33,101 nt of DNA from a virus (taxonomy: Duplodnaviria; Caudoviricetes). The stretch covers positions 1 to 33,101 of IMG/VR virus record IMGVR_UViG_3300020042_001306; one strand, given 5' to 3'. Position numbers and translations under genes: made by a program. Shown here one piece after another: positions 945 to 28,820 of the stretch (within the stretch, counting starts at the first letter, position 1; each line of letters opens with the position of its first letter). Below the pieces are notes generated by a model that ran no database searches, was not told the origin of the DNA, and worked only from the letters and a program-made list of their open reading frames with translations.

Positions 945-1009
945 AGCACAAAGGCAAAGAATACCTTATGATGCGTGAACCCGATGTGATTGGAGTTTTT
1001 AATGGCTGA
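941..1009 (+). pseudogene. groES: Remnant of the C-terminus of a GroES-like co-chaperonin
   Basis: MKHKGKEYLMMREPDVIGVFNG* matches the GroES C-terminal pattern G-x-E-(Y/L)-L-x-M-R-E-x-D-(I/V)-x-(G/A)-V; ATGA overlap with upstream gene. Confidence 0.6.
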
Positions 1010-3209: not shown

Positions 3210-3568
3210 AAGCCGCTGAATTTGTAGGTTTGTTGTTTTTAGCTAGAGATGTCACGCACAGTGTGCATCTGAACACACGTAGCTATTCTAAACATGTAGC
3301 GCTGAACATCTTTTATGACCGCATTGTTGGTGCAGCCGATGACTTTGCCGAAGCCTATCAGGGTAGAAACGGGTTAATCGGGCCAATCACATTGCACTCT
3401 GTTAAAAAAACAAACAATGTCATTGAATTCTTGGAAGATTCGCTTAAACAGATTGAAGACGCAAGGTATGAAGTGTGTGATAAGTCCGACAGTTCATTGC
3501 AACAATTGATTGACAACATTGTTGAAGTTTACTTGCGAACCCTTTACAAGTTAAAATTCTTGGCGTGA
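3206..3568 (+). CDS. Dps/ferritin-like four-helix protein (DUF5856-like)
   Basis: H-L-N...H-V-A-L-x2-F-Y-D...D-D-F-A-E resembles the Dps ferroxidase signature HWN...H...D-x-x-AE; ATGA overlap with portal. Confidence 0.7.
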   Translation: MKAAEFVGLLFLARDVTHSVHLNTRSYSKHVALNIFYDRIVGAADDFAEAYQGRNGLIGPITLHSVKKTNNVIEFLEDSLKQIEDARYEVCDKSDSSLQQLIDNIVEVYLRTLYKLKFLA

Positions 3569-3588
3569 TTTAAACGCTATGTTATATT
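3560..3588 (+). promoter_or_regulatory. Putative sigma70-type promoter TTGGCG-N17-TATATT with extended -10 TG
   Basis: Motif read directly; followed by AAGGAG RBS of the 3608 gene. Confidence 0.4.
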
Positions 3589-3607
3589 TAAGGCATAAGG
3601 AGCCATC

Positions 3608-3910
3608 ATGGAACTTTTAAAACCTCTAGCCGATACGGTGTTCCCCGCCGCGACTGTTTCGTATTCGGGCACGGCTGGATCGACTTCTACATGGGCCGCA
3701 GGCCCACAAGGCGTTGTAGTGTGGTCAACAACACCAGCCTACATTGTAGTTGGCGAAGGCGTTACCGCTACTACCGCCAGCACCCCCATCCCAGCTTTTA
3801 CACCTATTCCGTTTGCTGTGCCGAATGGCTCTGGTGGGCAATGGAGGGTGAGTGCTATTCAGGTATCAGCAACCGGATCAATTTACTGTAAGCCGGTAAA
3901 CATCCAATGA
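3608..3910 (+). CDS. Hypothetical virion-associated beta protein
   Basis: Strong AAGGAG RBS; 100 aa, Thr/Ser-rich. Confidence 0.7.
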   Translation: MELLKPLADTVFPAATVSYSGTAGSTSTWAAGPQGVVVWSTTPAYIVVGEGVTATTASTPIPAFTPIPFAVPNGSGGQWRVSAIQVSATGSIYCKPVNIQ

Positions 3911-4071
3911 GTTTTGGAATTGCTGTCAGAAATGCTGTGTCAATCGGGCTTGGCGGCATCGCCACGCTATTCTCGGGCACTTTTGATAGCAGCTTGACGG
4001 TAGATAATTTGCTGACAGAATCTGGGGCAAACCTTGTGCAAGAAAATGGCGACTATATTCTTTTGGAGTGA
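3907..4071 (+). CDS. 54-aa putative fibre-anchor peptide (LLTESG..LVQENG motif)
   Basis: Hand translation MSFGIAVRNAVSIGLGGIATLFSGTFDSSLTVDNLLTESGANLVQENGDYILLE*; ATGA overlap; not in ORF track. Confidence 0.75.
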   Translation: MSFGIAVRNAVSIGLGGIATLFSGTFDSSLTVDNLLTESGANLVQENGDYILLE

Positions 4072-4075
4072 TTAA

Positions 4076-4723
4076 ATGGCTGACTTAAAAATTTCCCAGT
4101 TGCCAGCGGCAACAACCCCGCTGGCAGGCACAGAAGTTCTGCCAATTGTCCAATCGGGTGGCACTGTTCAAGTGTCAGTCAACAACCTGACGGCGGGCAA
4201 AGCTGTTGCAGCATCCACGGTAACTGCAACAACGGTAACTGCGACCACGTTAGTGGGTAGCTTAGACACAAACGTAGCAGCGGCCAAACTTACAGTGTCC
4301 GGCACAAGCGCGGTAGCAAGTGGCACAGATGGCGACATTAACATAACGCTTACCCCCAAAGGCACTGGCGTAGTAACCACTGCCGCTTCATACAGCGATG
4401 CGGCAGGAAAACTTCGAGCAATTCCTCAGTCTGGCTCGGCCAAAACCACAACTTACACATTGGCAACAACTGATGTAGGCGAGTTTATTGAAGTTGGCAC
4501 AAGCGGGGCAATTGTTGTACCTAACGCCACATTTGCTGCTGGCGACGCGGTTGTAATTTTTAACAACACATCTGGTTCAATTACAATTACTTTGTCAATT
4601 ACGACAGCCTATAAAGCTGGCACTGACGTTGATCAAGCAACTCTTTCATTGGCAACTCGCGGTGTTTGTAGTATTTTGTTTATTAGCGGTACAGTCTGTG
4701 TGGTAACCGGAAACGTATCATGA
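4076..4723 (+). CDS. Short fibre protein with ADLKISQL N-terminal attachment domain
   Basis: MADLKISQLPAATTPLAGTEVLPIVQ N-terminus is typical of phage fibres; VTATT repeats; INITLTPKGTG; C-terminal beta-sandwich. Confidence 0.75.
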   Translation: MADLKISQLPAATTPLAGTEVLPIVQSGGTVQVSVNNLTAGKAVAASTVTATTVTATTLVGSLDTNVAAAKLTVSGTSAVASGTDGDINITLTPKGTGVVTTAASYSDAAGKLRAIPQSGSAKTTTYTLATTDVGEFIEVGTSGAIVVPNATFAAGDAVVIFNNTSGSITITLSITTAYKAGTDVDQATLSLATRGVCSILFISGTVCVVTGNVS

Positions 4724-5547
4724 GTGGGATTATTACTAGCTTTGTGGGCGGTAGTTTTGGCGTAGCTCCCGGCTCAGAAACCTTTACGGCCGGTTCATAT
4801 ACTTGGATTGCGCCCGGTGGAGTAACATCGGTTGCAGTTGTCGCTGTCGGCGCTGGCGGCGGTGCAACTCGTGGCGGCGGCGGCGGTGGTGGCGAGTTGC
4901 GGTATACAAACAATATTTCGGTAACTCCCGGCTTGCCTTACGCTGTTGTTGTTGGCACAAGAGGAAATAGCGGCGTTAATTTAGGCTGCGCGACAGCAGG
5001 CGGGCTTTCATCCTTTAACACGACAAGTGTTATTGCAAATGGTGGAAAGGGTTATTCACTTTCCTTTGGTACAACATTTGGAGGAAGTGGTGGAACTGGA
5101 ACTGGCGGTGGTAACGGCGGGGATGCTGTTACTGGTGGTGCTGGCGGCGGTGGCGGCGCGGGTGGTTATTCTGGCGCTGGTGGTTTTGGTGGTTTTTGCG
5201 GAAGTCAAACAGCAGGCGCGGGCGGCGGTGGCGGTGGCGGTGCTAACAGTGTTTCCGCATCTAGCGGAGGCGGCGGTGGCGGTGTTGGATTGTTTGGCCA
5301 AGGCGCAAATGGTGCTAGGAACGTTGGCAACGGTGGTGGTGGTGGTGGTTCTTGTGGTGTAGCTGGAGGTAATGGTGGTGCTTATCCTACTGTAGGTGGT
5401 ACTGGCGGGGCGTACGGCGGTGGTGGCGGGCATGGGGCAAACTGTGCGTGTTCAAGTTCTGGAGGCTTAGCATCAGGCGGCGGCGTTCGTATCCTTTGGC
5501 CCGGAACTACTCGCTCATTCCCATCAACTTGTGTCGGCGCGCCTTAA
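4720..5547 (+). CDS. Glycine-rich fibre/adhesin-type protein
   Basis: FTAGSYTWIAPGGVTSVAVVAVGAGGG start, GGxG runs and GGGVRILWPG end, typical of polyglycine phage adhesins. Confidence 0.8.
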   Translation: MSGIITSFVGGSFGVAPGSETFTAGSYTWIAPGGVTSVAVVAVGAGGGATRGGGGGGGELRYTNNISVTPGLPYAVVVGTRGNSGVNLGCATAGGLSSFNTTSVIANGGKGYSLSFGTTFGGSGGTGTGGGNGGDAVTGGAGGGGGAGGYSGAGGFGGFCGSQTAGAGGGGGGGANSVSASSGGGGGGVGLFGQGANGARNVGNGGGGGGSCGVAGGNGGAYPTVGGTGGAYGGGGGHGANCACSSSGGLASGGGVRILWPGTTRSFPSTCVGAP

Positions 5548-5562
5548 TTTTGAGAAAAAAAT

Positions 5563-6051
5563 ATGAAACTCTATATTCAGGTAGAAAACAATCAACCCGT
5601 TAATCACCCCGCATTTGAAAATAATTTAATTCAGGCGTTTGGGACAATCCCAAATAATTGGGAAAAGTTTAATCGCGTTGACCGCCCAACAAACCTTGTC
5701 TATCAAGTGTTTGAATCTCAAGACCCGATATACACAAAAATTGATGACGCTTGGACGGACGTGTGGCAACTTCGCAACATGACTACCGAAGAAAAAGCGG
5801 CCAAACAACAAAATGTTCAAGCTGAATTTAATTCCAGAGAACAAGTTGAGAATTGGTCTGCTTGGACTTTTGACGATGCTACTTGCACAATGGTTCCCCC
5901 AATCCCTCGCCCAGAGCCAGATCAGGCCAAACTAACCGCCAACATTATGACTTTCTGGTGCGGTGCGGATGCAAACTGGAAAGATACTCCAGTGCGTCCA
6001 GAAGGCAAATACAAGTTTGATTTCATTGCATGGGCTTGGGTTGCACAATGA
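5563..6051 (+). CDS. Putative fibre assembly/chaperone-like protein
   Basis: Follows the Gly-rich gene; W..VW..R.MT.EEK and SAWTFDD..C...PPIPRP motifs. Confidence 0.55.
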   Translation: MKLYIQVENNQPVNHPAFENNLIQAFGTIPNNWEKFNRVDRPTNLVYQVFESQDPIYTKIDDAWTDVWQLRNMTTEEKAAKQQNVQAEFNSREQVENWSAWTFDDATCTMVPPIPRPEPDQAKLTANIMTFWCGADANWKDTPVRPEGKYKFDFIAWAWVAQ

Positions 6052-6752
6052 ACAAAGTAGTCAAAAAGTCAAAAATGTGCAAAGCTGCGGAGTCGGTAGC
6101 TGAAGTTGTTCTTCAAACACAGCTTCAAGTTGCCCATCACTTTCCGTGCCCAATCTACATTATTGAGCGCCCTGACTTTTTGGATGTAGTTAACACCGTA
6201 TCTGAAGAAGCGTTGGTAGAAGCACGTAAAACGCAATCGCTTAACGAAATTTATCCCCTTTACATGACGGGTAGTTATTTTGGTGACCCGCGCATGGCTA
6301 GGTTTTCTGAGTTTGTTGGCGCTACGGCTTGGAACATTCTTAATGAGCAGGGCTATGTCATGCAAGACAAAGCAGTGCAATTTACAGAAATGTGGACGCA
6401 AGAGCATCACAAGCATTCTGCAATGGACGCACACGTTCACGGATACGGCTCACAAATTGTGGGTTTTTACTTTCTTGAAACTCCAGAAAACGGCTCTAAC
6501 GTGGTGTTTCATGACCCCCGTGCTGCCAAGGTGCAGATTGACTTGCCCGAGCAAGACATAAGCATGGCAACTCCAGCTAGCAAAATGATTAACTTCGCAC
6601 CAAAACCTGGCATGATGATCTTTGCAAATTCATGGCTGATGCATTCGTTTACACGTCATGCAGCAGATAAGCCGATCAAGTTTGTACATTTTAACTTGGC
6701 TGTGATTTTGCAGCCGCAAACTCACCTAGTGCCAGCGGCAGAAATTGTATGA
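6048..6752 (+). CDS. 2OG-Fe(II) oxygenase (TIGR02466-like)
   Basis: W..., HVH, GFYFL, FHDPR, PKPGMMIFANSWLMH and terminal FN motifs; ATGA overlap favours start 6048. Confidence 0.85.
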   Translation: MNKVVKKSKMCKAAESVAEVVLQTQLQVAHHFPCPIYIIERPDFLDVVNTVSEEALVEARKTQSLNEIYPLYMTGSYFGDPRMARFSEFVGATAWNILNEQGYVMQDKAVQFTEMWTQEHHKHSAMDAHVHGYGSQIVGFYFLETPENGSNVVFHDPRAAKVQIDLPEQDISMATPASKMINFAPKPGMMIFANSWLMHSFTRHAADKPIKFVHFNLAVILQPQTHLVPAAEIV

Positions 6753-7003
6753 AAACGTACCAGATTCGGTTCAACAAGTCTCGCGGCCAAACAGGGCGCG
6801 GCACAATGGATCATGTTTGGCGCGTTTTTGAAAACGGCAAAGAATTTTTGCTTAAAAACTTAGATATATCAGTGCCTATTAAAAGCGAAAAAGACGCAAA
6901 TGGGGTTGATTACAATATCACATGCCGTGGGCATATGACTCTTGATCGAGAAACCTCAACGGCCGTCATTACCGCAAGTATTGAGGAATTGGAAAAAGCA
7001 TGA
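6749..7003 (+). CDS. Hypothetical phage protein
   Basis: 84 aa ORF with ATGA overlaps on both sides. Confidence 0.7.
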   Translation: MKTYQIRFNKSRGQTGRGTMDHVWRVFENGKEFLLKNLDISVPIKSEKDANGVDYNITCRGHMTLDRETSTAVITASIEELEKA

Positions 7004-7479
7004 CTGCAACATTAAGCCCATCACCCAAAATGCAGTTTTTTACGGCTGCGGGTGTGCCCCTTGTTGGTGGCAAACTGTTTACTTACGCTAGTGGAACCAC
7101 GGTTCCTTTGGCTACTTATACCGATAGCACCGGGGTCACTGCAAACACAAACCCTGTTATCTTGGACTCGCGCGGCGAAGCAAACGTATGGTTTGGCCCG
7201 TCACGCTATACGTTGTTGCTTAAAGATTCATTGGATAATTTGATCTGGACTGCGGCTGGCGTTAACAGCAGCCCAAGCATTCAAACCGCCACAATAATTG
7301 CCACTGCATCACAAACAGTGTTTACTGTGCCTGAATACGGCCTTGGTGGATATTTGATGGTGATAGTCAATGGACTCGTCAAAGAGTTTAATTACGACTA
7401 TACTGAGACAAACACGACGACGATCACTTTTGGGGTCGGCCTTACTGCTGGCCAACGATTAGTGACTCGGATGCTATAA
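7000..7479 (+). CDS. Short tail protein with tailspike head-binding-like N-terminal domain
   Basis: QFF...G.PL.GGKL.TY.SGT..PLATY...NTNPVILDSRGEA.VW motif, then an ATASQTVF domain. Confidence 0.75.
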   Translation: MTATLSPSPKMQFFTAAGVPLVGGKLFTYASGTTVPLATYTDSTGVTANTNPVILDSRGEANVWFGPSRYTLLLKDSLDNLIWTAAGVNSSPSIQTATIIATASQTVFTVPEYGLGGYLMVIVNGLVKEFNYDYTETNTTTITFGVGLTAGQRLVTRML

Positions 7480-8316: not shown

Positions 8317-9528
8317 ATGTCTAATAGTATTCTGACGATCGACATGATCACCCGTAAGGCTCTTGAGATTCTTGAGAACAACCTTGTAATTACCCGTAAC
8401 GTGAACCGCCAGTACGACGACAGCTTTGCTGTTGAAGGCGCTAAAATTGGTTCTACACTGCGCATTCGCTTACCCGACCGCGCTTTGGTAACTGACGGTG
8501 CTGCCTTGCAAGTGCAAGACGACAACGAACAGTTCACCACATTGACTGTTGCTTCACAAAAGCACATTGGTGTCAACTTCACATCTGCTGAATTGACAAT
8601 GCAGTTGGACGACTTTGCAGAACGTGTGCTTAAGCCTCGTATCAGCCAGTTGGCATCTTCTATTGATGCTGACGTTGCCAACGCGTACAAAACCATTGGT
8701 AACACTGTTGGCACTCCTGGCACAACTCCTTCAACTTCTTTGGTCTTGTTGCAAGCCCAGCAGAAGCTAAACGAAAACGCGGCTGTAATGTCTCCACGTT
8801 ACGCTACTGTGAACCCTGCTGCTAACGCTGGTTTGGTTGAAGGCATGAAAGGTCTGTTTAACCCAACAGACACTGTCAGCAAGCAATTCAAGAACGGCAT
8901 GATGGGTATGGGCGTGTTGGGCTTTGAAGAAGTCAACATGTCTCAATCAATTAAGCAGCACACAACTGGCTCACGTAGCGCCAGTGCTTCTACATTGGTT
9001 AAGACACCTGGCGTTACTTCCGAAGGTTCATCAACCATTCTGTTGGAACAAGGCTCTGTAACCACCACCATTAAAGCTGGTGATGTGTTTACAGTCTCTG
9101 CTTGCAATGCGGTTAACCCACAGACCCGTGAGTCAACTGGTTCGCTGTTCCAATTCGTTGCTTTGGCTGACGCTACTGCTTCGTCTGGTACTTGGACTGT
9201 GACCGTGGCGGCTATGTATTCTGCTGCACATGCTTTGGCTACCGTAGACGTGTTGCCTGCAACTGGCGCTACCGTAACCTTTGTGGGCGCTGCTTCTACT
9301 CAGTACGCACAGAACTTGGTTTACCACAAAGATGCGATCACATTTGCGACCGCTGACTTGTTGTTGCCCCAAGGCGTTGACATGGCTGCCCGTGCCGTTC
9401 ACAACGGTATCAGCTTGCGTGTGGTTCGCCAGTACGACATCAACAACGACCGTATGCCTTGCCGTATTGACGTTTTGTACGGCTTCAGCACAATGCGTCC
9501 ACAAATGGCCTGCCGTATCTGGGGCTAA
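8317..9528 (+). CDS. Major capsid protein, P22 gp5 coat family
   Basis: 403 aa; KIGSTLRIRLP, NLVYHKDAITFAT, RIDVLYG motifs; strong codon bias. Confidence 0.95.
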   Translation: MSNSILTIDMITRKALEILENNLVITRNVNRQYDDSFAVEGAKIGSTLRIRLPDRALVTDGAALQVQDDNEQFTTLTVASQKHIGVNFTSAELTMQLDDFAERVLKPRISQLASSIDADVANAYKTIGNTVGTPGTTPSTSLVLLQAQQKLNENAAVMSPRYATVNPAANAGLVEGMKGLFNPTDTVSKQFKNGMMGMGVLGFEEVNMSQSIKQHTTGSRSASASTLVKTPGVTSEGSSTILLEQGSVTTTIKAGDVFTVSACNAVNPQTRESTGSLFQFVALADATASSGTWTVTVAAMYSAAHALATVDVLPATGATVTFVGAASTQYAQNLVYHKDAITFATADLLLPQGVDMAARAVHNGISLRVVRQYDINNDRMPCRIDVLYGFSTMRPQMACRIWG

Positions 9529-10737: not shown

Positions 10738-11454
10738 ATGGCAACGTACACCGCTGGCGAACAAATTAACCGAGCATTGCGCTTGCTAGGTGTACTGGCT
10801 GAAGGTGAAACACCTTCGGCAGACATGTCAAATGACGCGCTGACCGCGCTCGATCAGATGATCGACTCATGGAATACCGAGCGACTGTCGGTGTTTGCCA
10901 CACAAGATCAAATGTTTACTTGGCCTGCGGGCCAAATCACCCGAACGCTTGGCCCAACGGGTAACTTTGTGGGCCTGCGCCCAGTGTTGCTAGATGATGC
11001 AACTTATTACCGTGACCCTGGCACAAACGTGTCTTTTGGTATTAAGTTTATCAATCAGCAACAGTATGATGGCATTGCGGTTAAAACCGTAACGTCCACA
11101 TACCCGCAAGTTATTTTTGTCAATAACACATACCCCAATTTTACAATGACGGTGTACCCCCAGCCCACACGGGACTTGGAATGGCACTTCATTTCGGTTG
11201 AAAAAATAAATCAGCCCGCTACGTTGGCAACGCAAATGTTGTTTCCACCGGGCTACTTGAGAGCATTTACCTACAACTTGGCAATGGAAATTGCACCTGA
11301 GTATGGCGTTGAGCCAAGCCCGCAAGTGCAGCGCATTGCCATGACTAGCAAACGCAATCTTAAGCGCATCAATAACCCAGACGATGTGATGTCGTTGCCT
11401 TATGCAATTGTGGCAACACGCCAGCGTTTTAACATTTACGCTGGTAACTACTGA
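10738..11454 (+). CDS. Head-to-tail adaptor (P22 gp4-like)
   Basis: TAGEQINRALRLLGVLAEGETP...AL..L..MIDSW; PPGY..A..YNLA.EIAPEYG. Confidence 0.85.
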   Translation: MATYTAGEQINRALRLLGVLAEGETPSADMSNDALTALDQMIDSWNTERLSVFATQDQMFTWPAGQITRTLGPTGNFVGLRPVLLDDATYYRDPGTNVSFGIKFINQQQYDGIAVKTVTSTYPQVIFVNNTYPNFTMTVYPQPTRDLEWHFISVEKINQPATLATQMLFPPGYLRAFTYNLAMEIAPEYGVEPSPQVQRIAMTSKRNLKRINNPDDVMSLPYAIVATRQRFNIYAGNY

Positions 11455-13115
11455 TGAAGACACCTATTCTTGGGTCGGCCTATGTAGCGCGTAGCGTTAA
11501 CGCTGCCGACGCGCGAATGGTCAACCTTTTTCCAGAAGCCATACCCGAGGGCGGTAAAGAGCCGGGGTTCTTAAACCGCGCGCCAGGACTGCGCCTTTTG
11601 GCAAACATGGGCGATGGCCCTATACGCGGGTTATGGCAGTTTGGCGGCTACGGTTATGCTGTATCTGGTGAAGTGCTATATAAAATTGACAGTATTTGGA
11701 ATGCGTCTGCGGTTGGTACTGTTTCAGGATCATCTGGCCCTGTCAGCATGGCAGACAACGGAACGCAATTATTCATTGCTTGTAATGGCCCTAGTTTTAT
11801 TTACAATAGTTTAACGCTGTCGTTTGCGCAAATTACCGACGTAGACTTTCCCGGCGCGGTCACGGTAGGCTACATCAACGGTTATTTTGTGTTTAATGAA
11901 CCAAATAGCCAACGGATATGGATTACAACCCTACTAAACGGGCAATCAATTGACCCGCTAGATTTTGCAAGCGCTGAAGGCTCTCCTGATGGCTTAGTGT
12001 CGCTTATTGTTGATCACCGCGAGATATGGTTGTTTGGAACCAATTCAGTTGAAGTTTGGTACGACGCTGGCTCATCTCCATTTCCGTTAGTGCCCGTTCA
12101 AGGTGCGTTTAACGAAGTCGGCTGTATTGCAGCCTTTTCGGTTGCCAAACTAGACAACGGCCTTTTCTGGCTAGGTTCTGACGCGCGCGGCCAAGGCATT
12201 GTCTACCGTGCCAATGGTTACGCTGCCCAACGAATATCTACACATGCTGTAGAGTGGCAAATCCAGCAATACGAAAACCTTTCGGATGCCATTGCTTACA
12301 CATACCAGCAAGACGGCCATTCGTTCTATGTGTTGATCTTTCCTTCAGCCAATGCTACTTGGGTGTTTGACGTTGCTACTTCGCTTTGGCACGAACGCGC
12401 TGCGTTTATCAATGGTTCGTTTACCCGTCATCGGTCAAATTGCCAAATGTCGTTTAGTAATGAAATTGTTGTAGGCGACCATGAACTTGGAAACATCTAT
12501 GCATTTGATTTAGATGTGTTTTCAGACGCTGGCGCGGTGCAGAAGTGGCTTCGGTCATGGAGGGCGTTGCCGGTTGGCACAAACGATTTAAAACGCACTG
12601 CCCAACATTCACTTCAACTTGACGCAGAAACAGGCGCTATTAATTCAAGCGTTACTACAACGCCGGTTATTGTAGATACTTCAAATCCTAACGATGATTT
12701 GCTTACCGAAAGCGGTGATTTTCTTGTTTGGGAATACTTAGCGACTCCATTGACCGAAGTGTTATTAACCGAAAACGGTGACAACCTTGTTCAAGAAGAC
12801 GGCGGTCGAATTGTGCTTGCTGTAATTCCAGTTAGCGCTGTGGGTGGTAGGCTGTTAATTCAAAGTGGTTTTTTTACCGCGACTGCAATTGACCCTCAAG
12901 TTATGCTGCGTTGGTCTGATGACGGCGGCCACACTTGGAGCAATGAACACTGGCGGTCTATGGGTTTAACAGGCCAATGGGGGCGGCGTGTAATCTGGCG
13001 TCGATTAGGCATGACGCTAAAGTTGCGTGACCGTGTTTATGAAGTGTCTGGCACAGACCAAGTAAAAATAGCAATCATGGGCGCTGAACTTAATGTGAGC
13101 GCAACCAATGCCTAA
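11454..13115 (+). CDS. Packaged DNA stabilisation/tail hub protein (P22 gp10-like)
   Basis: VSMADNG, FASAEGSPD, TYQQDGHSFY, PQVMLRWSDDGGHTWS, IWRRLG motifs. Confidence 0.93.
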   Translation: MKTPILGSAYVARSVNAADARMVNLFPEAIPEGGKEPGFLNRAPGLRLLANMGDGPIRGLWQFGGYGYAVSGEVLYKIDSIWNASAVGTVSGSSGPVSMADNGTQLFIACNGPSFIYNSLTLSFAQITDVDFPGAVTVGYINGYFVFNEPNSQRIWITTLLNGQSIDPLDFASAEGSPDGLVSLIVDHREIWLFGTNSVEVWYDAGSSPFPLVPVQGAFNEVGCIAAFSVAKLDNGLFWLGSDARGQGIVYRANGYAAQRISTHAVEWQIQQYENLSDAIAYTYQQDGHSFYVLIFPSANATWVFDVATSLWHERAAFINGSFTRHRSNCQMSFSNEIVVGDHELGNIYAFDLDVFSDAGAVQKWLRSWRALPVGTNDLKRTAQHSLQLDAETGAINSSVTTTPVIVDTSNPNDDLLTESGDFLVWEYLATPLTEVLLTENGDNLVQEDGGRIVLAVIPVSAVGGRLLIQSGFFTATAIDPQVMLRWSDDGGHTWSNEHWRSMGLTGQWGRRVIWRRLGMTLKLRDRVYEVSGTDQVKIAIMGAELNVSATNA

Positions 13116-13806
13116 CACCACGCCAAACATCACCAAAATACCTTCTGCGCGGGTAGCTTTGATTGAGGAAAATACAAATTTAGTTTCGCGAGAATGGTTT
13201 CGTTTTTTTAATAACATTTACACCATATCCGGCGGCGCTACTTTAGGTATTACGCAAATTGAAAATGGTGGTACGGGTGCGGATACCGTTGCGGGCGCGC
13301 GGGCTAATTTAGGCGTTGGTACAGTTACCCGTGTTCAAGGAACGGGCACTGTAAGCGGTATAACTTTGACGGGCGATGTAACAACAAGCGGTAGTTTGAC
13401 GTTAGGCGGGGCGTTGTCAAACATTGACATTGGAACCCAAACTATCGGCGCCATTAACTTAACCACACGCGCTGAAGGTGTGCTACCAGTTGCCAATGGC
13501 GGCACGGGTATGGCGGCAACAACTATTGCCACCAAAGCGGCCGACTTTAGCCTTGCTGACAACGAAGGGTGGGTAATCAACAACAAGTCAGGTTCGACTT
13601 GTACGGTCACACTCCCCGCCGCGTCGTTGTGGGGTGGCCGCGCAGTAGGGTTTAAAAACTTGCAAGCGCAGGCGTTGGTATCAGCGTCTAGCAATGTTGC
13701 GCCTATTGGCAGCGCCACGCCGGGCACAACAATTCTTGCTGCCAGCGCAGGCGCATGGGCGACCCTTGTCTCAGACGGCACAAACTGGGTAATCATGGCA
13801 TCATGA
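13108..13806 (+). CDS. Tail needle/short fibre protein
   Basis: Follows gp10; SREWFRFF N-terminus, two NGGTG repeats, C-terminal VTLPAA...LVSDGTNW domain. Confidence 0.7.
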   Translation: MPNTTPNITKIPSARVALIEENTNLVSREWFRFFNNIYTISGGATLGITQIENGGTGADTVAGARANLGVGTVTRVQGTGTVSGITLTGDVTTSGSLTLGGALSNIDIGTQTIGAINLTTRAEGVLPVANGGTGMAATTIATKAADFSLADNEGWVINNKSGSTCTVTLPAASLWGGRAVGFKNLQAQALVSASSNVAPIGSATPGTTILAASAGAWATLVSDGTNWVIMAS

Positions 13807-14651
13807 TTAAATATTACCCAACTTCGGTAACTTACGGCAAGGGCTTCGGGTTAACAACGGCCAAAAAAGTCAAAGCGCTTCAGGACGAACTGTTAAAAAT
13901 GCCACAGGCTGACATTGTTACAACGCACACGTTCCTTCCCGGCGCGTACGAACGCGCGGTTACGATCCCCGCATGGACTGTGCTGACGGGCGCAGAACAC
14001 AAGACTTCCTATCGTGTGCGGCTAGAAAAAGGCACAATTGCGGTAAACACGGACGACGGCGTTAAAGTTCTTACCGCGCCATGTGAGTTTGAATCTAAAG
14101 CAGGGATGCAACGCGCTGGCCGAGTGTTTGATGAAGAAGTAGTTTGGATTGATGTTTACGACAATCCTGACAACTGCACAGACCTTGCAGTTCTTGAAGA
14201 CCGACTGTACGTTGTCCCTGAGTGCGGGCTGGCCGATAGCCGAACAGATGCTCAAAAAGCACGGATTGACTACGGTTTATTTTTGCACCAGTTGGGCATA
14301 GCAGACGCCGACGTAGCTAAAATAGCGCAAATTGAATCAGACCTAATCAATATGCCTGAAGGGTTTTCTGTAGAACTCAAGCCATCAAACATTCACGGTC
14401 TTGGACTTTTTGCGACAAAAGACTTTGAAGTTGGTGAAACTGTTTGTCCGGGTAGACTTGACGGAAAGCGCACTCCCGGTGGAAGATACATCAATCATTC
14501 CCAAAACAGCAACATTCAACCAGAACTGGTTGGGGATAACATATTTGCCGTTGCTTCGCGTAAAATCAACGCAGGCGATGAATTATTGGTTGACTATCGA
14601 GCATCAATGAGAGTTAATTTTGGCTTTGTAATGCAAGGAGAAATATTATGA
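13803..14651 (+). CDS. Cupin-like domain fused to a SET-domain lysine methyltransferase
   Basis: N-terminal PQ...HTF.PG.Y.R.VTIPA.TVLTG.EHK; C-terminal SET motifs IHGLGLFA, RYINHS, GDELLVDY; ATGA overlaps at both ends. Confidence 0.85.
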   Translation: MIKYYPTSVTYGKGFGLTTAKKVKALQDELLKMPQADIVTTHTFLPGAYERAVTIPAWTVLTGAEHKTSYRVRLEKGTIAVNTDDGVKVLTAPCEFESKAGMQRAGRVFDEEVVWIDVYDNPDNCTDLAVLEDRLYVVPECGLADSRTDAQKARIDYGLFLHQLGIADADVAKIAQIESDLINMPEGFSVELKPSNIHGLGLFATKDFEVGETVCPGRLDGKRTPGGRYINHSQNSNIQPELVGDNIFAVASRKINAGDELLVDYRASMRVNFGFVMQGEIL

Positions 14652-15838
14652 GCGCATGGATAGCAGGCACGGCAATCGTTGCCAGTGCGGTAATTTCATC
14701 AAATGCTGCGGGAAATGCTGCGGACACTCAAGCTGCGGCTGCTAGAGATGCAGGCACAACAAGTCTTGAAGGACTTCAATTACAAATTGCCGCTGACAAA
14801 GAAAATGTCACTTTGCAAATTGCGGCTCAAAAAGATGCGTTAACTCAAACGCTTGCGGCTCAAAAAACAGCCGCAGAAGCTGGTAATGCTGCCGCTGCCG
14901 CAGCACTTGACAAGCAACTTAACGCACAAAGAGCAGCGCTTGATCAATCGCTTGGCTTGCAACGTGAATTGTTTAATAAACAAGTTGAAAATTTGCGTTC
15001 ATTTAAAGAAGCCGGTGAAAAAGGCCAAGCTCGTTTAATGGATTTACTAGGCTTAAGCGGCAATAAAGACGCGCCTGGCTATGGTTCTGCAACAACAGCG
15101 TTTAAGGTAGAAGGGTTTGATCCCAACACTTTGTTTCAAGAGTTTAATGCTCAAGAAATGAAAGAAGACCCCGGCTACGCATTTCGTTTGGCCGAAGGTC
15201 AAAAAGCTATTGAGCGCTCAACTGCGGCTAGGGGTGGATTGCAGTCCGGCGCTGCACTTAAAGCGGCGGCTGAGTACGGGCAAAGCATGGGTTCGCAAGA
15301 ATATAACAATGCTTTTAACCGTTTTCAAGCTGGCAAAGCATTTCAAGCCCAAGAGTACGGCAATGCTTTTAATCGGTTTACCGCCGCGCGTCAAAACCAA
15401 CTTGCGCCGCTGTTGTCTTTGACAGCTAGCGGCCAGGCTTCAGCGGCTATGCAAGCAAACGCTGCGGGTAATTTTGCATCTAGTGGATCACAAGCCATTC
15501 AAAACGCTGGTGCTGGCGAGAGCGCTGCGTATGGTAACTATGGCGCAATGACCGGCGATATAGCCGCGCGAACTGGCGCTGGTAACACTGCTGCTTATGG
15601 CAATTACGGGGCTAATCTTTCAAACATATACGGCACGTCCAATGCCAACCGTCAAAGCGCTTATGCCACAAACACAGCTAACCAAATAAATTCAATTACT
15701 GGCGCAGGAAATGCTACGGCCGCAGGACAAATTGGTTCGGCAAACGCGTTTAGCAATGCTATTAACCAAGGCATAAGTTTGTATGGAGCATACAACACCA
15801 ATCAGTTGATGAACAGATACCTTACAAGAACAACATAA
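14648..15838 (+). CDS. Internal virion/DNA ejection protein (P22 gp7-like)
   Basis: Ala/Gln/Gly-rich; DPGYAFRL.EG..AIER..AARGGL.SG motif. Confidence 0.8.
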   Translation: MSAWIAGTAIVASAVISSNAAGNAADTQAAAARDAGTTSLEGLQLQIAADKENVTLQIAAQKDALTQTLAAQKTAAEAGNAAAAAALDKQLNAQRAALDQSLGLQRELFNKQVENLRSFKEAGEKGQARLMDLLGLSGNKDAPGYGSATTAFKVEGFDPNTLFQEFNAQEMKEDPGYAFRLAEGQKAIERSTAARGGLQSGAALKAAAEYGQSMGSQEYNNAFNRFQAGKAFQAQEYGNAFNRFTAARQNQLAPLLSLTASGQASAAMQANAAGNFASSGSQAIQNAGAGESAAYGNYGAMTGDIAARTGAGNTAAYGNYGANLSNIYGTSNANRQSAYATNTANQINSITGAGNATAAGQIGSANAFSNAINQGISLYGAYNTNQLMNRYLTRTT

Positions 15839-15848
15839 GGACTAAGCC

Positions 15849-17240
15849 ATGCCAATCGACCCTAGCATTATTTCTGGCCTAAGGCCGACACAAATTGATT
15901 TTGCGCAGCTTTCGCCAATGAACGCGCTAACGGGCGCTATGAAGTTCAGGCAACTTGACCAAGAAAACAAACTTAACGCGCTAAAAATGCAAGAGTATGA
16001 GCGCGCTCGTACTGAAGAAGAAGGCTTGCGTAACTACCTAAGTGGCGGCAGGGAAATGCCTGCGGCAGACCTTAGTTCGCCGGACACGCGAACAAATTTG
16101 TTGCGATATGGCAAAACTGGCGCAACGTATGCCAAGGCTTTAACCGAACAAGATACAGCAGCTTTGACGCAAAAGAAAGCGCAGTTTGAAATTCAAAAAT
16201 CAAGAAAAGATTTTGTTGCACAAGCACAACGCGACACAAGTCAAAACCCATCGGACGCCAACATTACGGCGTACAAAGAAGACTTGATGGCTAACCCGCT
16301 GTTTACTGAAGCTGAAAAAAAGCAAATGGCTGCGGGGGCTGACCGAATTTTGGCTATGCCTGTTGGTGAACGTAAAGCGTTTATGGCTAGCCAAGGCGCA
16401 AGCGCAAGCGAGTTGAAGCCGGCAATTTCACAAGTTAACCGGTCTGGACAGACTGATGTAATATCAACACCTGCGTTTGGCGGTACGCCTACAACGCTCG
16501 GCAACTTTTCCGACGTTCCATTGCCTGCCAACGTGCAAGCGCAAAAAATTCAAATTGCGCAGCAGAGCCGGCCGCCAGCACAGCCTTCTGCGCCGGTTGC
16601 GGTTATTGGACTAGATGGCAAACCAATGTATGTATCGCGTGAACAGGCAATTAGTCAAGGAATGCAACCCGCATCTAGCGCAGCTAACTTAAAACCTTTG
16701 ACAGAAGGGCAAACAATTAAATTGCGTACCGATGTTGGCAAAGATTACAAAGCCGCATCAACTGCTTTGTCGCAAATGGATGACTTGCTTGACTCAATTG
16801 AGAGCGTCAAAACCGCGCCTGGCTTGTCAGCCGCTACAGGCTTTACGGGTAAGTATCTGCCGTCATTCTCTGAAGGCAAAGCGGCCCAAGCTGAGACACG
16901 CCTTGCTAACTTACGCGGTAAAGTAACTGCGTTAGGCAAGGCGACTGCGGCCATGTCAGGTGCAATTGGATCTATTGCCAATCAAGAATGGAAAATCTTG
17001 TCTGATCAAATTGCAGCGCTTGATGAAGTCAAAGGTAAAGGGCCTTTGCTTGAACAGATTGATTTGGTTGAACAACAAGCGCGTGGCGCTATTGCCCGCG
17101 TTCGAGACACATACGAAAAGACGCGGTCTGAAGACTTTGAGCGCTTCCCTCAGTTCCGCGATTTACCCGCTCCACGCGGTAAAAAAGATTCTGGTGGCGG
17201 TACTGGTGGGTTTAAATATCTCGGAAAAGAAGGTGGATAA
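15849..17240 (+). CDS. Internal virion/ejection protein (gp20-like position)
   Basis: 463 aa helical protein between gp7-like and a large ejection protein; GAIGSIANQEW motif. Confidence 0.7.
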   Translation: MPIDPSIISGLRPTQIDFAQLSPMNALTGAMKFRQLDQENKLNALKMQEYERARTEEEGLRNYLSGGREMPAADLSSPDTRTNLLRYGKTGATYAKALTEQDTAALTQKKAQFEIQKSRKDFVAQAQRDTSQNPSDANITAYKEDLMANPLFTEAEKKQMAAGADRILAMPVGERKAFMASQGASASELKPAISQVNRSGQTDVISTPAFGGTPTTLGNFSDVPLPANVQAQKIQIAQQSRPPAQPSAPVAVIGLDGKPMYVSREQAISQGMQPASSAANLKPLTEGQTIKLRTDVGKDYKAASTALSQMDDLLDSIESVKTAPGLSAATGFTGKYLPSFSEGKAAQAETRLANLRGKVTALGKATAAMSGAIGSIANQEWKILSDQIAALDEVKGKGPLLEQIDLVEQQARGAIARVRDTYEKTRSEDFERFPQFRDLPAPRGKKDSGGGTGGFKYLGKEGG

Positions 17241-19489
17241 TGGCTACCAAATACCGTGTTCAAGGCCCAGATGGCGTAGTCCATGTTTTTGAAGGACCGG
17301 ACGACGCAACGCCGGCGCAAATAGAATCTTTTGCCGCGCAAACTTTTGGCGGCTCTCCTGCCGCCGCCCCTGCTGCACCACGCGGCAAAGCAGGCATGTT
17401 TGACATGCTGTCTGCGCCGTTTGAGATGGGCGCCGCGCTTGCGGCCAAGCCGCGTAAAGAACAAGTAGAGTTTATTGCGCCTGCTGTTGAGGCGTTAGGC
17501 AGCGCTGGCGGTGCAATAGTAGGAACTGGCGCAGGACCGCTTGGCACAGTAGTTGGTGCAGGCGCTGGTTATGCTGGCGCTAAAGAATTGTTACGTTTTG
17601 CGGCTGGCGAAAGTGGTAAAGAGACACTTCCACAAGCCGCTACACGGCAAGCGCAAAATGTGCTTGAAGGCGCGACAATGGAAGCCTTTGGGCGCGGGGT
17701 TGTAAGCCCTGTTATTGCCAAAGGCGCTGAATACGCAAACAAACTTAAAAACATCAAACTTGACCAATACATTAAAGCTGTTGGCGATAAGGGTGAAGAA
17801 ATTGTTAATGCTTTGCGTGGCCGTACACAAATCGTTCCAGGCACATCCCCAACAGCCGGCGAAGTCGCCGCCCCTGTTGGTAGCGTAGGACTGTCGGTAT
17901 TGCAAGCACGCGCCCGTCAAGTGCCAGGCGCGGCAGATATTTACGCAACTAAAGAAGCGCAAAACATTGTTGCCCGTCAAAATCAAGAAGTACGCGCAAC
18001 GGCTAAATTTGACGCATCTAAACAACGTCTTCAAGCAAAAATTGATCGCGGCCTAGTTAATGTAACGCCCGGCGAAATTGGTGGCACGTTGATTGACGCG
18101 GCCAAGGCCGAACAAAAAACAATTAAAACCAAGGTAGTGCAGCCTGCCTATGACGCCGCGTTTGAAGCCGCTGGCGACGCAAAGATCGATGTATCAAAAG
18201 TTGTCAACGAAGCAGAACGTATTCTTGATCGTAAACTGTCAAGTTTTGCCACTGAAACTGCGCCGGATACTGTACGCAAATTGCGCGGGTTTGTACCTCC
18301 TGTGCCTGAAGCGGAAGCAATAACTGTTGGTAAAGCAGGTTTTAGAATTGCAAAAGAACCTACACCCCCGCCAGCAACGCCAGAAGCAACGCTGTTGCAG
18401 CTTGATGATGTTCGCAAAGCCATCAATGCAGATATTGCGGCAGCTTCATCAAGCAACGCGCCCATGGCGGCCACGACCCTGCGCAATCTAAAGCAGTTAC
18501 ATGCTGCAATTGACGACGCCGTTAAGTCAAGCACTGCTTTACCTGATGAAGCCAAAACGCTGTACAAAGGCGCGTTGGATACTTACCGCACACAATACGC
18601 GCCTCGCTTTAAAGAAGGCATCAATGCAAACTTGTTTAAGCAAACAAATTTGCAAGAAACCAAAATCAAGCCAGAAGATGTTGTTAGCAGATACTTTCAG
18701 CCCAAAGGTGAAAGCGAAGCTAAAGACTTCTTGCGTTTGTTTGACAAAAACCCAGACGCAATGAAAATTGCAAGGACCGGCATTGAAGACTTGTACCGCC
18801 GTGAAGTAACGGACGCTACTGGTTTTGTAACACCTGAAGCGCATGCTACGTTTATGAAAAAGTACGCAGAGCCGCTTAAGATTCTTGATGACGCGGGCAT
18901 GAACATTAGCCAACGCGTTGGTGTTGTTGCAAAAGACGCTATTCGGTTAGCAAAAATTGACGAACTTGCAAAAACTAGCGGTAATAGGTTGGCGCCAGCC
19001 TTACCAGCAGGCACTAACGCGCTTGCGGTAGAAAAAAGAATTGGTGAGTTGACCAGAAGTTTTACGCCCGAACAATTAAGCCATGTAAACGCCGTGCGGC
19101 AAGATTTGTTGCGTGAAGGTGAATATCAGCGCTTGGTAAAAGCTGGCGCAGACGCAGGCACTGACATTAAAAGTTTGGCCACAAAAACTGGTAGAGAAGC
19201 TGGCTTGCCTTTACCAAACTTTTTGTCAGTACCAATTACGGTGTTTAACAATGTCGTTAAGCGCCTAGCATTACGCATGGACGATAAGATTGCGTTAGAA
19301 ATTGCGCGTGAACTAACCAACCCTGCCATAGCCGCTGATCAAATTGAGGCTGCTATTAAGTTGCAAGCAACGCGCCGTGCGGCCACGCCTGGCGTCGGTA
19401 CTGCTACAGGATTGGCCGGCACACGGGCGCTCGGCGCGGAGATGTCACGCCGCGCAGAACCTGAAAACCAAAACGCATTGGCCCAATAA
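17240..19489 (+). CDS. Large internal virion/ejection protein (gp16-like position)
   Basis: 749 aa Ala-rich; N-terminal YRVQGPDG...EGPDDAT; Gly-rich hydrophobic segment; TAATG coupling. Confidence 0.7.
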   Translation: MATKYRVQGPDGVVHVFEGPDDATPAQIESFAAQTFGGSPAAAPAAPRGKAGMFDMLSAPFEMGAALAAKPRKEQVEFIAPAVEALGSAGGAIVGTGAGPLGTVVGAGAGYAGAKELLRFAAGESGKETLPQAATRQAQNVLEGATMEAFGRGVVSPVIAKGAEYANKLKNIKLDQYIKAVGDKGEEIVNALRGRTQIVPGTSPTAGEVAAPVGSVGLSVLQARARQVPGAADIYATKEAQNIVARQNQEVRATAKFDASKQRLQAKIDRGLVNVTPGEIGGTLIDAAKAEQKTIKTKVVQPAYDAAFEAAGDAKIDVSKVVNEAERILDRKLSSFATETAPDTVRKLRGFVPPVPEAEAITVGKAGFRIAKEPTPPPATPEATLLQLDDVRKAINADIAAASSSNAPMAATTLRNLKQLHAAIDDAVKSSTALPDEAKTLYKGALDTYRTQYAPRFKEGINANLFKQTNLQETKIKPEDVVSRYFQPKGESEAKDFLRLFDKNPDAMKIARTGIEDLYRREVTDATGFVTPEAHATFMKKYAEPLKILDDAGMNISQRVGVVAKDAIRLAKIDELAKTSGNRLAPALPAGTNALAVEKRIGELTRSFTPEQLSHVNAVRQDLLREGEYQRLVKAGADAGTDIKSLATKTGREAGLPLPNFLSVPITVFNNVVKRLALRMDDKIALEIARELTNPAIAADQIEAAIKLQATRRAATPGVGTATGLAGTRALGAEMSRRAEPENQNALAQ

Positions 19490-21574: not shown

Positions 21575-21721
21575 CGTCCGGTAAGCCTCAATGGCCGTCT
21601 TAAAATCGCATTGCAAGTGCTGGATGCGGTCGTCTTGATCACACAACTTGGCGTAGGCTTCCTCGGCAAACTTGGCCAAGTTAGCCTGGCTCCATGTCTG
21701 AAAGTCTGGTCTGTTAGTCAT
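21521..21721 (-). CDS. Small coiled-coil hypothetical protein
   Basis: MTNRPDFQTWSQANLAKFAEEAY...; start 21721 overlaps the upstream gene end; 3' end overlaps the lysozyme. Confidence 0.65.
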   Translation of the reverse strand: MTNRPDFQTWSQANLAKFAEEAYAKLCDQDDRIQHLQCDFKTAIEAYRTLSKEHGALVDAPVLKTP

Positions 21722-22346
21722 TTCTCGCCTTAATATCGTAGAACCAATCATCGCCGGCTGACCACTTGCGTGTGCCGTCAACCGTCCACAATCTTTGCGC
21801 TGCTTGGAAGTCAGGGAACTTTGTCTCAGCAGGGATTAGGCTTTGGTCGTACCACAGGCATCGGTTGTTGGGTTGGCAGGCAAACTGGCCGTTGTCCAGC
21901 GCAATCCAATTAAAAGACTTGTGTTCCTCGGCCTGCTCAGTAAAACCCGTGTCCAAGTCCATGCCGTCAGCGCAGAAGTCCACCGTGAACAGATAGCGCC
22001 CAAAGTGCCACTCACGGTCTTTGCCCAAGAACTTAACGCCTAGATTGCGTAGGCCAATCTTTTCAAGGATGGTAAATCGGTAGCCCATGCAGTCCCACAG
22101 TTGCAAAGTGTCAACAGGCAAGTTACCGGCGTCTGCATGCCAGACGTAGGCGTGGATCGGCAGCTTGTCGTACAGCGCGCCGTAGGCCGGCAACAGCGAT
22201 TCAATGCGGAACACCTGACCACGCAAGGCTTTGAGGCTGACCCAGATGGCCGGCTCCAACTCGCCGTGGCCCTTGTGGTCATTGTATAAAAACTCGCGCT
22301 TTACAAAGCATTTAACTGGCGGCAGCGATGCCACGATATAACTCAT
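21714..22346 (-). CDS. Conserved-type phage protein of unknown function
   Basis: 210 aa; AAGGA RBS; EFLY...GHGE, LQLWDC, EHKSFN, LDNGQFACQPNNR motifs. Confidence 0.8.
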   Translation of the reverse strand: MSYIVASLPPVKCFVKREFLYNDHKGHGELEPAIWVSLKALRGQVFRIESLLPAYGALYDKLPIHAYVWHADAGNLPVDTLQLWDCMGYRFTILEKIGLRNLGVKFLGKDREWHFGRYLFTVDFCADGMDLDTGFTEQAEEHKSFNWIALDNGQFACQPNNRCLWYDQSLIPAETKFPDFQAAQRLWTVDGTRKWSAGDDWFYDIKARND

Positions 22347-28427: not shown

Positions 28428-28820
28428 ATGACAGAACAATGGCGCGCAGTGCCAAATTTTGAAACGTATTACGAAGTTAGCGATCACGGAAACGTGCGTT
28501 CGTTGCCTCGTTATGTGCCGTATGGCCGACACAAAGGGGCAACCTATGCCGGTCGTGATTTAAAGCAGTTTGTAACAAATGATTATTTGAGCGTAAAACT
28601 GGCAAGAGGCGGCATCACAAAAACAACGTATGTACACGCGCTTGTATTGCAGGCGTTTGTCGGTGAACGCCCAATTACAGAAGATCGCGGTGAGATACGT
28701 CACCTTGATGGCGACAGAACAAACAACACGCTGTCCAACTTGGTTTATGGAACCGTGGTGGAAAACGGCGCAGATCGAGTTAAACACAACAAAATGAAGG
28801 CAACCTATGAACTTTCTTGA
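28428..28820 (+). CDS. NUMOD4-HNH homing endonuclease
   Basis: EQWRAVPNFE..YEVSDHGNVRS; VH.LV..AF, IRHLDGD.TNN.L.NL...T..EN. Confidence 0.9.
   Translation: MTEQWRAVPNFETYYEVSDHGNVRSLPRYVPYGRHKGATYAGRDLKQFVTNDYLSVKLARGGITKTTYVHALVLQAFVGERPITEDRGEIRHLDGDRTNNTLSNLVYGTVVENGADRVKHNKMKATYELS

Follow-up and report, generated by a model that had tools for sequence, protein, structure and literature searches.

Genome context and gene organization

The DNA analysed here, referred to as the window, is a stretch of 33,101 nucleotides from a P22-like podophage. The gene of interest encodes a fusion protein and is located between a tail hub gene and the ejection genes, in the following arrangement:

990-3209: portal
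8317-9528: coat
10738-11454: gp4-like gene
11454-13115, (+) strand: P22 gp10-like tail hub (head closure Hc3), the upstream anchor of the slot
13108-13806, (+) strand: gene 5′ of the fusion, with ATGA overlap, variable among relatives, weak tail-fibre similarity
13803-14651, (+) strand: cupin and minimal SET fusion gene, 282 aa, in the P22 gp14 / T7 gp13 slot
13908-14201, (+) strand: cupin (double-stranded beta-helix), residues 36-133, from structure
14247-14327, (+) strand: two helices before the SET domain, residues 149-175
14355-14621, (+) strand: minimal SET domain, residues 185-273, from Pfam and structure
14391-14414: motif IHGLGLFA, residues 197-204
14484-14501: motif RYINHS, residues 228-233
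14574-14597: motif GDELLVDY, residues 258-265
14648-15838, (+) strand: gp7-like first ejection (pilot) protein, the proposed substrate, phrog_598
14648-14710, (+) strand: N-terminal segment of this ejection protein, M-S-A-W followed by an Ala/Val/Ile/Gly run, in which residue 3 tracks SET
15849-19489, (+) strand: two more genes in the gp20/gp16 ejection positions, assigned by position alone

The fusion gene overlaps both neighbours by the sequence ATGA, at 13803-13806 on the 5′ side and 14648-14651 on the 3′ side, as the original prediction had it. An alternative in-frame ATG at 13755 would give a protein of 298 aa; the majority of close homologues begin near 13803. At E≤1e-3 the protein has 1235 homologues near its own length, so that the reading frame is not a chance one. 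The neighbours had been described as a tail gene and a gp7-like ejection gene. The latter assignment stands, the gene at 14648-15838 matching phrog_598 ('DNA ejection') with E=9e-21, whereas for the upstream gene at 13108-13806 a weak tail-fibre match (E=7e-7) is the sole match. The genes within 15849-19489 gave no Pfam or PHROG match.

The window also encodes a lysozyme and a Pol A replication block; a NUMOD4-HNH endonuclease (28428-28820) separates the genes for Pol A and the primase-helicase. A 210-aa gene at 21714-22346 (-) matches phrog_3704 ('ferredoxin') with E=5e-71 and has no Pfam match. The portal-to-scaffold cassette (3206-7479) comprises a DUF5856/Dps-like gene, a Gly-rich 275-aa protein, small fibre-like genes and a 2OG-Fe(II) oxygenase (6030-6752), and is possibly a second virion-protein modification module.

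Overall fold and the cupin domain

An AlphaFold model of the fusion protein, built on a 111-sequence alignment, has a pLDDT of 92 and contains a beta-barrel (residues 39-121), helices (149-175), a SET core (190-265) and a closing helix. The model was compared with 48,161 PDB chains by VIA-align, and the top rows are cupins and SET domains. The complete SET motifs and cupin-like N-terminal domain that had been read from the letters of the DNA are thus confirmed by the motif positions, by the Pfam SET match and by structural matches of both folds, each domain of the model finding its own fold. A GNAT fold is absent from the model and from the Pfam matches, and no fibre architecture is present in the two compact globular domains. 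Helices 149-175 also accompany the SET domain in SET-first fusions and in stand-alone SET proteins.

Residues 36-133 match cupins in the PDB, the best being 4e2g (Z 11.0, RMSD 2.7, 92 aligned). Many further PDB cupins follow at Z 9-10.5, and a viral Foldseek search also yields cupins. The cupin region of the window's protein has no Pfam match; the cupin-only relative phiAp1 gp43 matches Cupin_2 weakly (E=0.0035). The PDB matches are generic, and no cupin (enzyme) family stands out among them. For a His/His/Glu/His metal site, the candidate His residues are found across the family (phmmer-based alignment) at frequencies of 85% (H42), 80% (H66), 53% (H70) and 57% (H119). The window's cupin retains two of these four, H42 and H66; at the other two positions, which are His in many relatives, it has Tyr (Y70 and Y119), and both tyrosines are invariant in its close relatives. 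Because of these two substitutions, the cupin probably acts as a binder in the lineage of the window. In the sample derived from a DNA pattern (see below) the frequencies of H42 and H66 are inflated, since the search pattern fixed both residues.

The SET domain

The fusion protein matches Pfam SET (PF00856) with E=1.1e-9 and 39.1 bits, against a cut-off of 22.4. Residues 185-282 of the model match the SET domains of MLL1 (Z 10.7, RMSD 3.9, 89 aligned), EZH2 (Z 10.1, RMSD 2.1, 83 aligned) and SET8 (Z 9.8), the matches to these three and SET7/9 together spanning Z 9.3-10.7. The SET profile finds vSET (PBCV-1 A612L, PDB 1n3j) with E=4e-12 and MLL1 with E=1e-15. The fusion shares the fold and the GxG, RxxNHS and ExxxDY motifs with vSET, MLL1, EZH2 and SET8, but unlike these proteins the phage SET domain is fused to a cupin, is encoded among virion genes, has no histone target and has its SET-I insert cut. 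Across 111 diverse sequences there is no variation at S195, G201, N231, H232, N237, E260 and Y265, with G199 at 99% and R228 at 97%, and the SAM-site motifs GxG, RxxNH and ExxxxY are conserved. Invariance of the SAM-site residues at a mean column identity of 27% argues for a functional SAM site.

None of the SET motifs is missing, yet the domain departs from the standard form, as the central SET-I insert, which forms part of the substrate (peptide) groove in standard SET domains, is nearly absent. The insert occupies ∼9 profile positions, compared to 44 residues in MLL1, and the spacing from GxG to NH is 32 in 91 of 102 sequences. SET-I is variable in length within the SET family, so that a short SET-I marks a variant and membership of the Pfam family stands; by sequence and fold, the fusion is a SET-family member, in a variant form without SET-I. 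In motif register, the channel tyrosine of the standard EYxG motif presumably falls on an Ala/Gly column (Ala 68%, Gly 14%). Judged from the aligned residues, the active site may be more open than that of a standard SET domain.

Family members and domain arrangements

The family comprises 2907 cluster representatives at E≤1e-3, in the forms cupin-SET, SET-cupin, cupin alone, SET alone and a three-domain protein, P0260. Isolates that carry a full-length fusion relative include Rhodoferax phage P26218 (gp30) and Pseudoalteromonas phage PH1 (gp49). Phages of Ralstonia, Vibrio, Shewanella and Alteromonas have cupin-only forms, which are annotated as tail fibre or adhesin. Three PHROGs are relatives by sequence, with database labels of 'unknown' or tail fibre: phrog_34170 (function not annotated) spans residues 18-274 with E=1.6e-40, and phrog_12032 ('short tail fiber protein') and phrog_24280 ('tail fiber adhesin'), which are PHA00672-type, match residues 19-138. 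A term search of the main text of the P26218 genome paper (PMC4657236) gave no mention of methyltransferase or cupin, and titles and abstract openings in the open-access literature contain nothing on a phage SET or cupin-SET virion gene of this family.

Several further arrangements were observed. A gp13/GNAT-like domain is joined to a cupin in loci L530 (1134-2051, (-)), L431 (2467-3309) and L549; that of L530 belongs to the T7 gp13 family (phrog_308, E=4e-33). In the single chain of P0260, SET and cupin are preceded by a domain that looks GNAT-like by eye and has no Pfam or PHROG match; a locus search with P0260 as query found no locus. Stand-alone mini-SET genes of 125-133 aa, with the motif R-T-x-A-G-R-Y and without a cupin, are found in other gene contexts (L262, L267, L273, L275, L276, L283 and about ten more). 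Three loci have near-identical cupins in different arrangements, with the cupin only in L403, a SET gene of its own next to it in L436 and a SET fusion in L449; L449 is a recent fusion, and residue 3 of its downstream protein is still aromatic.

The slot before the first ejection gene

In all seven annotated phage records opened, the cupin or fusion gene lies directly 5′ of the first ejection-type gene. The gene at this position is the fusion in P26218 and PH1, and the cupin alone in Firinga, VvAW1, X14 and the T7-like phiAp1, where it has tail tube B on one side and the gp14-like gene on the other, which is the position of T7 gp13. Among 80 close loci the downstream gene is readable in 74, all of which overlap the fusion gene and start with M-S-G/A. 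The proposed positional link to virion genes is therefore seen both in isolates and in close loci.

To tabulate the occupants of the gp10-to-gp7 slot, as had been suggested, 80 loci were anchored on the gp10 gene (61-86% identity), 24 of which fall short of a scorable ejection gene. The 56 scorable relatives have cupin-only (28), cupin-SET (7) and other or empty slots (21). Twelve of the 'other' slot proteins were scanned: five are GNATs by Pfam, one has a weak acetyltransferase PHROG match, one is sulfotransferase-like with a GNAT-like C-terminal part, three are helical (phrog_21390 type or fragments, two with DDxxD) and two have no clear match. By eye, ∼8 of the 56 seem to have an empty slot, which suggests that the step is dispensable in some lineages. 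Twelve annotated gp10 relatives show the same mix of slot genes. The idea of an exchangeable slot is thus borne out, with the qualification that its constant element is the cupin, SET being an add-on that is found in both domain orders.

Two of the rarer slot types deserve description. In L252 (6624-7691) the slot is occupied by a 355-aa fusion of sulfotransferase-like and acetyltransferase-like parts. In L220 (6189-6644) and L234 (8566-9018), with fragments in L187 and L207, it contains a helical protein of ∼150 aa of the phrog_21390 type with a DDxxD-like motif, and the adjacent ejection proteins start with M-P-D/E-P-V/I. The DDxxD proteins have no Pfam match, and their atlas score of 0.77 to isoprenoid-synthase clusters serves as a lead only; they could be isoprenyl transferases acting on the pilot tip.

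The same position, just before the first ejection protein, is taken by T7 gp13 (PF11090, phrog_308) and by P22 gp14, which we take to be DUF2824 (PF11039). Unlike these proteins, the fusion has no GNAT fold and is predicted to transfer methyl rather than acyl groups. The natural gp13-cupin fusion in L530 ties the T7 gp13 family to the cupin family. A published account links a GNAT beside internal virion proteins to T7 gp13 (PMC6775973). No substrate for T7 gp13 or P22 gp14 is named in titles and abstract openings of the open-access literature.

Residue 3 of the ejection protein covaries with SET

The downstream proteins begin with Met and a small residue (S/T/A/G at residue 2 in nearly all), followed by a run of Ala/Val/Ile/Gly. 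At a first look at distinct N-termini, M-S-G/A was present in 53/53 accompanying cupin-SET; M-S-G was present in 1/71 accompanying cupin only and in 0/30 accompanying other slots. To lessen clade bias, later loci were drawn by DNA motif alone; this sample is limited by the pattern and includes only loci with full flanks, after dropping 16 loci with a downstream ORF that is not hydrophobic at its start and those cut by contig ends. The 432 loci among the matches listed form 141 clusters, at 65% cupin identity and split by architecture and residue-3 class. Among these listed loci, residue 3 is G/A/S in 38 of 42 SET clusters, compared to 7 of 99 cupin-only clusters, in which it is mostly Trp (35) or Phe (33). 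The rule breakers thus amount to 11 clusters, four SET clusters with a bulky residue 3 (L258, L272, L449, L507) and seven cupin-only clusters with a small one. In the genome_contigs loci, for which the rule was fixed beforehand, a small residue 3 is present in 7/8 with SET and 2/57 with cupin only.

The contrast is limited to residue 3, which is small in 90% vs 9% and aromatic in 7% vs 73%, while positions 4-15 differ far less, and ejection proteins that are up to 90% alike differ at residues 2-3 according to slot class. A constraint from the gene overlap was considered as the cause of M-S-G/A and rejected, because the pattern persists in non-overlapping genes (small residue 3 in 25/25 with SET vs 2/27 with cupin only). 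Ser2 is encoded by both serine codon families in the 42 SET clusters (TCN 19, AGY 18), a sign that selection acts on the protein. Within each slot class, selection on residue 3 at the protein level is well supported, and the covariation of this residue with SET is a new point of the present analysis.

A scan anchored on the SET motif gave 80 full loci, and all counts from it refer to the loci listed. Cupin fusions make up 63 of these, of which 60 show the downstream gene; all 60 have a hydrophobic, pilot-like start, and in 58 residue 3 is G/A/S; 15 of these do not score as gp7 homologues by HMM. The rule also holds with such non-gp7 downstream genes, e.g., those for proteins of 840-1100 aa. 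In the other 17 loci SET occurs without cupin, and the downstream gene, read in three of them, is not pilot-like, so that this type of SET can work elsewhere. In small samples, GNAT slots accompany other starts (MAI-G/A-T, MG), and the DDxxD type accompanies M-P-D/E-P.

Tree-based contrasts

A tree built from the body of the ejection protein shows at least 24 changes of slot class, and in 21.9 of 24 pairs residue 3 changes accordingly (p 6e-6). This result is confounded, since the slot gene adjoins the start of the ejection gene and a swap can carry codons 2-3 along with it. The cupin tree is the fair test, and on average none of its pairs is opposite; it is a quick tree of 114 columns and is poorly resolved. 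In a first set, nine independent pairs gave 4.7 in the same direction, 0 opposite and 4.3 without difference (p 0.06), and in a second set seven pairs gave 2.6, 0 and 4.4 (p 0.25). With so few pairs the contrast is not significant, and residue 3 could therefore follow the cupin lineage and not SET. It is likely that SET, rather than cupin lineage, imposes residue 3.

Possible N-terminal maturation of ejection proteins

Conlin et al. 1992, in work on P22 genes 7 and 14, reportedly linked gene 14 to the processing of gp7. Before assembly, 20 residues are removed from the N-terminus of P22 gp7 (PMC4992974), a precedent for N-terminal maturation of this protein. Similar leaders were observed in the present loci. 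In L381, L425 and L451, all cupin-only, a leader ending in C-L-C-N precedes the usual A/S-W-V start, and in L090 (7577-8632) and L092 (8140-9066) a leader ending in N precedes D-P-V-T-A; the leaders in all five resemble the one removed from P22 gp7.

In L532 (1801-3189, (-)), L510 (1567-3219, (-)) and L423 (2848-4746, (+)), a cupin, a middle domain and a pilot-like segment form a single chain. The middle domain contains an N-C motif, and the pilot-like segment starts with T/A-W after Gly or Gly-Ala. The middle domain of L532 has a weak match to peptidase C39 (Pfam E=0.055) and none in the PDB, and is 15-19% identical to those of L510/L423. Cleavage may occur at these leader and junction sites, and the three chains are possibly self-processing polyproteins.

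T7 gp14 exits first and enters the outer membrane (PMC8954989). A term search of the main text of PMC9011153, PMC4657236 and PMC10975493 gave no virion proteomics for these genes, and titles and abstract openings in the open-access literature hold nothing on modification of ejection proteins in this family.

Proposed function

The N-terminus of the downstream protein is probably the partner of the fusion. As the main reading, to which we assign a probability of roughly 0.45, the fusion matures this N-terminus during assembly, and its SET domain is predicted to methylate the α-amine of Ser2 and not a lysine. Methionine aminopeptidase of the host removes Met1 when residue 2 is small, and would do so in the ejection protein (residue 2 = S/T/A/G). 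The cupin would bind the freed hydrophobic N-terminus, and the SET domain, having lost its peptide-binding insert, would take the N-terminal Ser plus small residue and methylate the amine. Once modified, the tip may assist either in loading the protein into the capsid or in its entry into the outer membrane. The parts of this scheme are tied together by the gp13-cupin fusion (L530), the SET-first fusions and the cupin-pilot chains (L423, L510, L532). The proposed chemistry is that of the N-α methyltransferases NTMT1/2, METTL13 and PrmA, and the comparison is restricted to how they work, since these are seven-beta-strand enzymes unrelated to SET. In the part of a review drawn on here, the N-α methyltransferases are seven-beta-strand enzymes, none of them a SET, and PrmA methylates both α- and ε-amines (PMC10293735).

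The original prediction had lysine methylation, and it is conceivable, if rather unlikely, that the cupin docks the fusion on the ejection N-terminus while SET methylates a Lys ε-amine further along or on another virion protein. The nearest relatives of known structure are without exception lysine methyltransferases, the catalytic-type Y265 and the NH motif are invariant, and many pilots have Lys at positions 20-31. However, Lys within residues 2-30 is not enriched with SET (18/31 clusters with, 22/40 without), a conserved Lys near the pilot N-terminus was not found across clusters, and the window's ejection protein has no Lys before residue 51. Lysine methylation would also leave the change at residue 3 alone unexplained. 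As the signal lies at residues 2-3, lysine appears doubtful as the methyl target.

The SET domain might instead be a passenger with a host or non-virion target, the residue-3 pattern then arising from cupin-lineage specificity and linkage. This we judge unlikely, although it would fit the cupin-less mini-SETs with the same motifs in 17/80 of the loci listed, the non-significant cupin-tree contrasts, and L449, which apart from its fusion is nearly identical to cupin-only L403 and has kept the aromatic residue 3. Against it, SET cupins scattered in the tree (L001, L419, L082/L567, L304, L285/L297/L544) all have a small residue 3, cupin-only rows near the main SET group (L389, L540, L611) have an aromatic one, and both domain orders occur in the slot.

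Two-step tailoring, in which the cupin would alter the N-terminal residues (e.g., by metal-dependent oxidation) and SET would methylate the product or the Ser hydroxyl, is improbable. The common candidate metal ligands, the aromatic residue 3 kept in cupin-only phages and the fusion of the cupin to gp13/GNAT-like domains are in its favour, but the Tyr70/Tyr119 pair of the window's protein and its close relatives and the generic nature of the cupin matches are not.

It is more improbable that the protein is a non-catalytic assembly chaperone, covering the hydrophobic tip and assisting entry of the ejection protein into the procapsid. The loss of SET-I would agree with such a role, as would the existence of cupins that only bind, CENP-C and seed-storage cupins being among the structural matches; an inactive protein would nevertheless hardly account for the invariance of the SAM-site and catalytic-type residues at 27% mean identity.

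A structural short tail fibre or adhesin, as cupin-only relatives are labelled in PHROG and GenBank through phrog_12032 and phrog_24280, is extremely improbable given the compact cupin and SET fold, the location of the phiAp1 gene and the replacement by GNATs in relatives; these labels on the cupin family are very likely wrong.

Implications

Methylation of the Ser2 α-amine by the fusion would give an orphan phage SET domain a substrate, and the two could be tested as a pair. If true, cupin-SET would provide the first case of protein α-amine methylation by a SET enzyme, and SET chemistry would be wider than known. More tentatively, at less than even odds, the podophage slot as a whole may hold interchangeable tip-tailoring enzymes (GNATs, cupin, cupin-SET, DDxxD prenyltransferase-like and sulfotransferase-like proteins), each matched to its own N-terminal code and sometimes combined with a leader or a built-in protease through which the tip is exposed. 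The same logic would, if true, give T7 gp13 and P22 gp14 their substrate, and it offers a hypothesis for the long-unexplained gene 5′ of the T7 and P22 ejection genes, which may serve to mature the N-terminus of the first-exiting protein.
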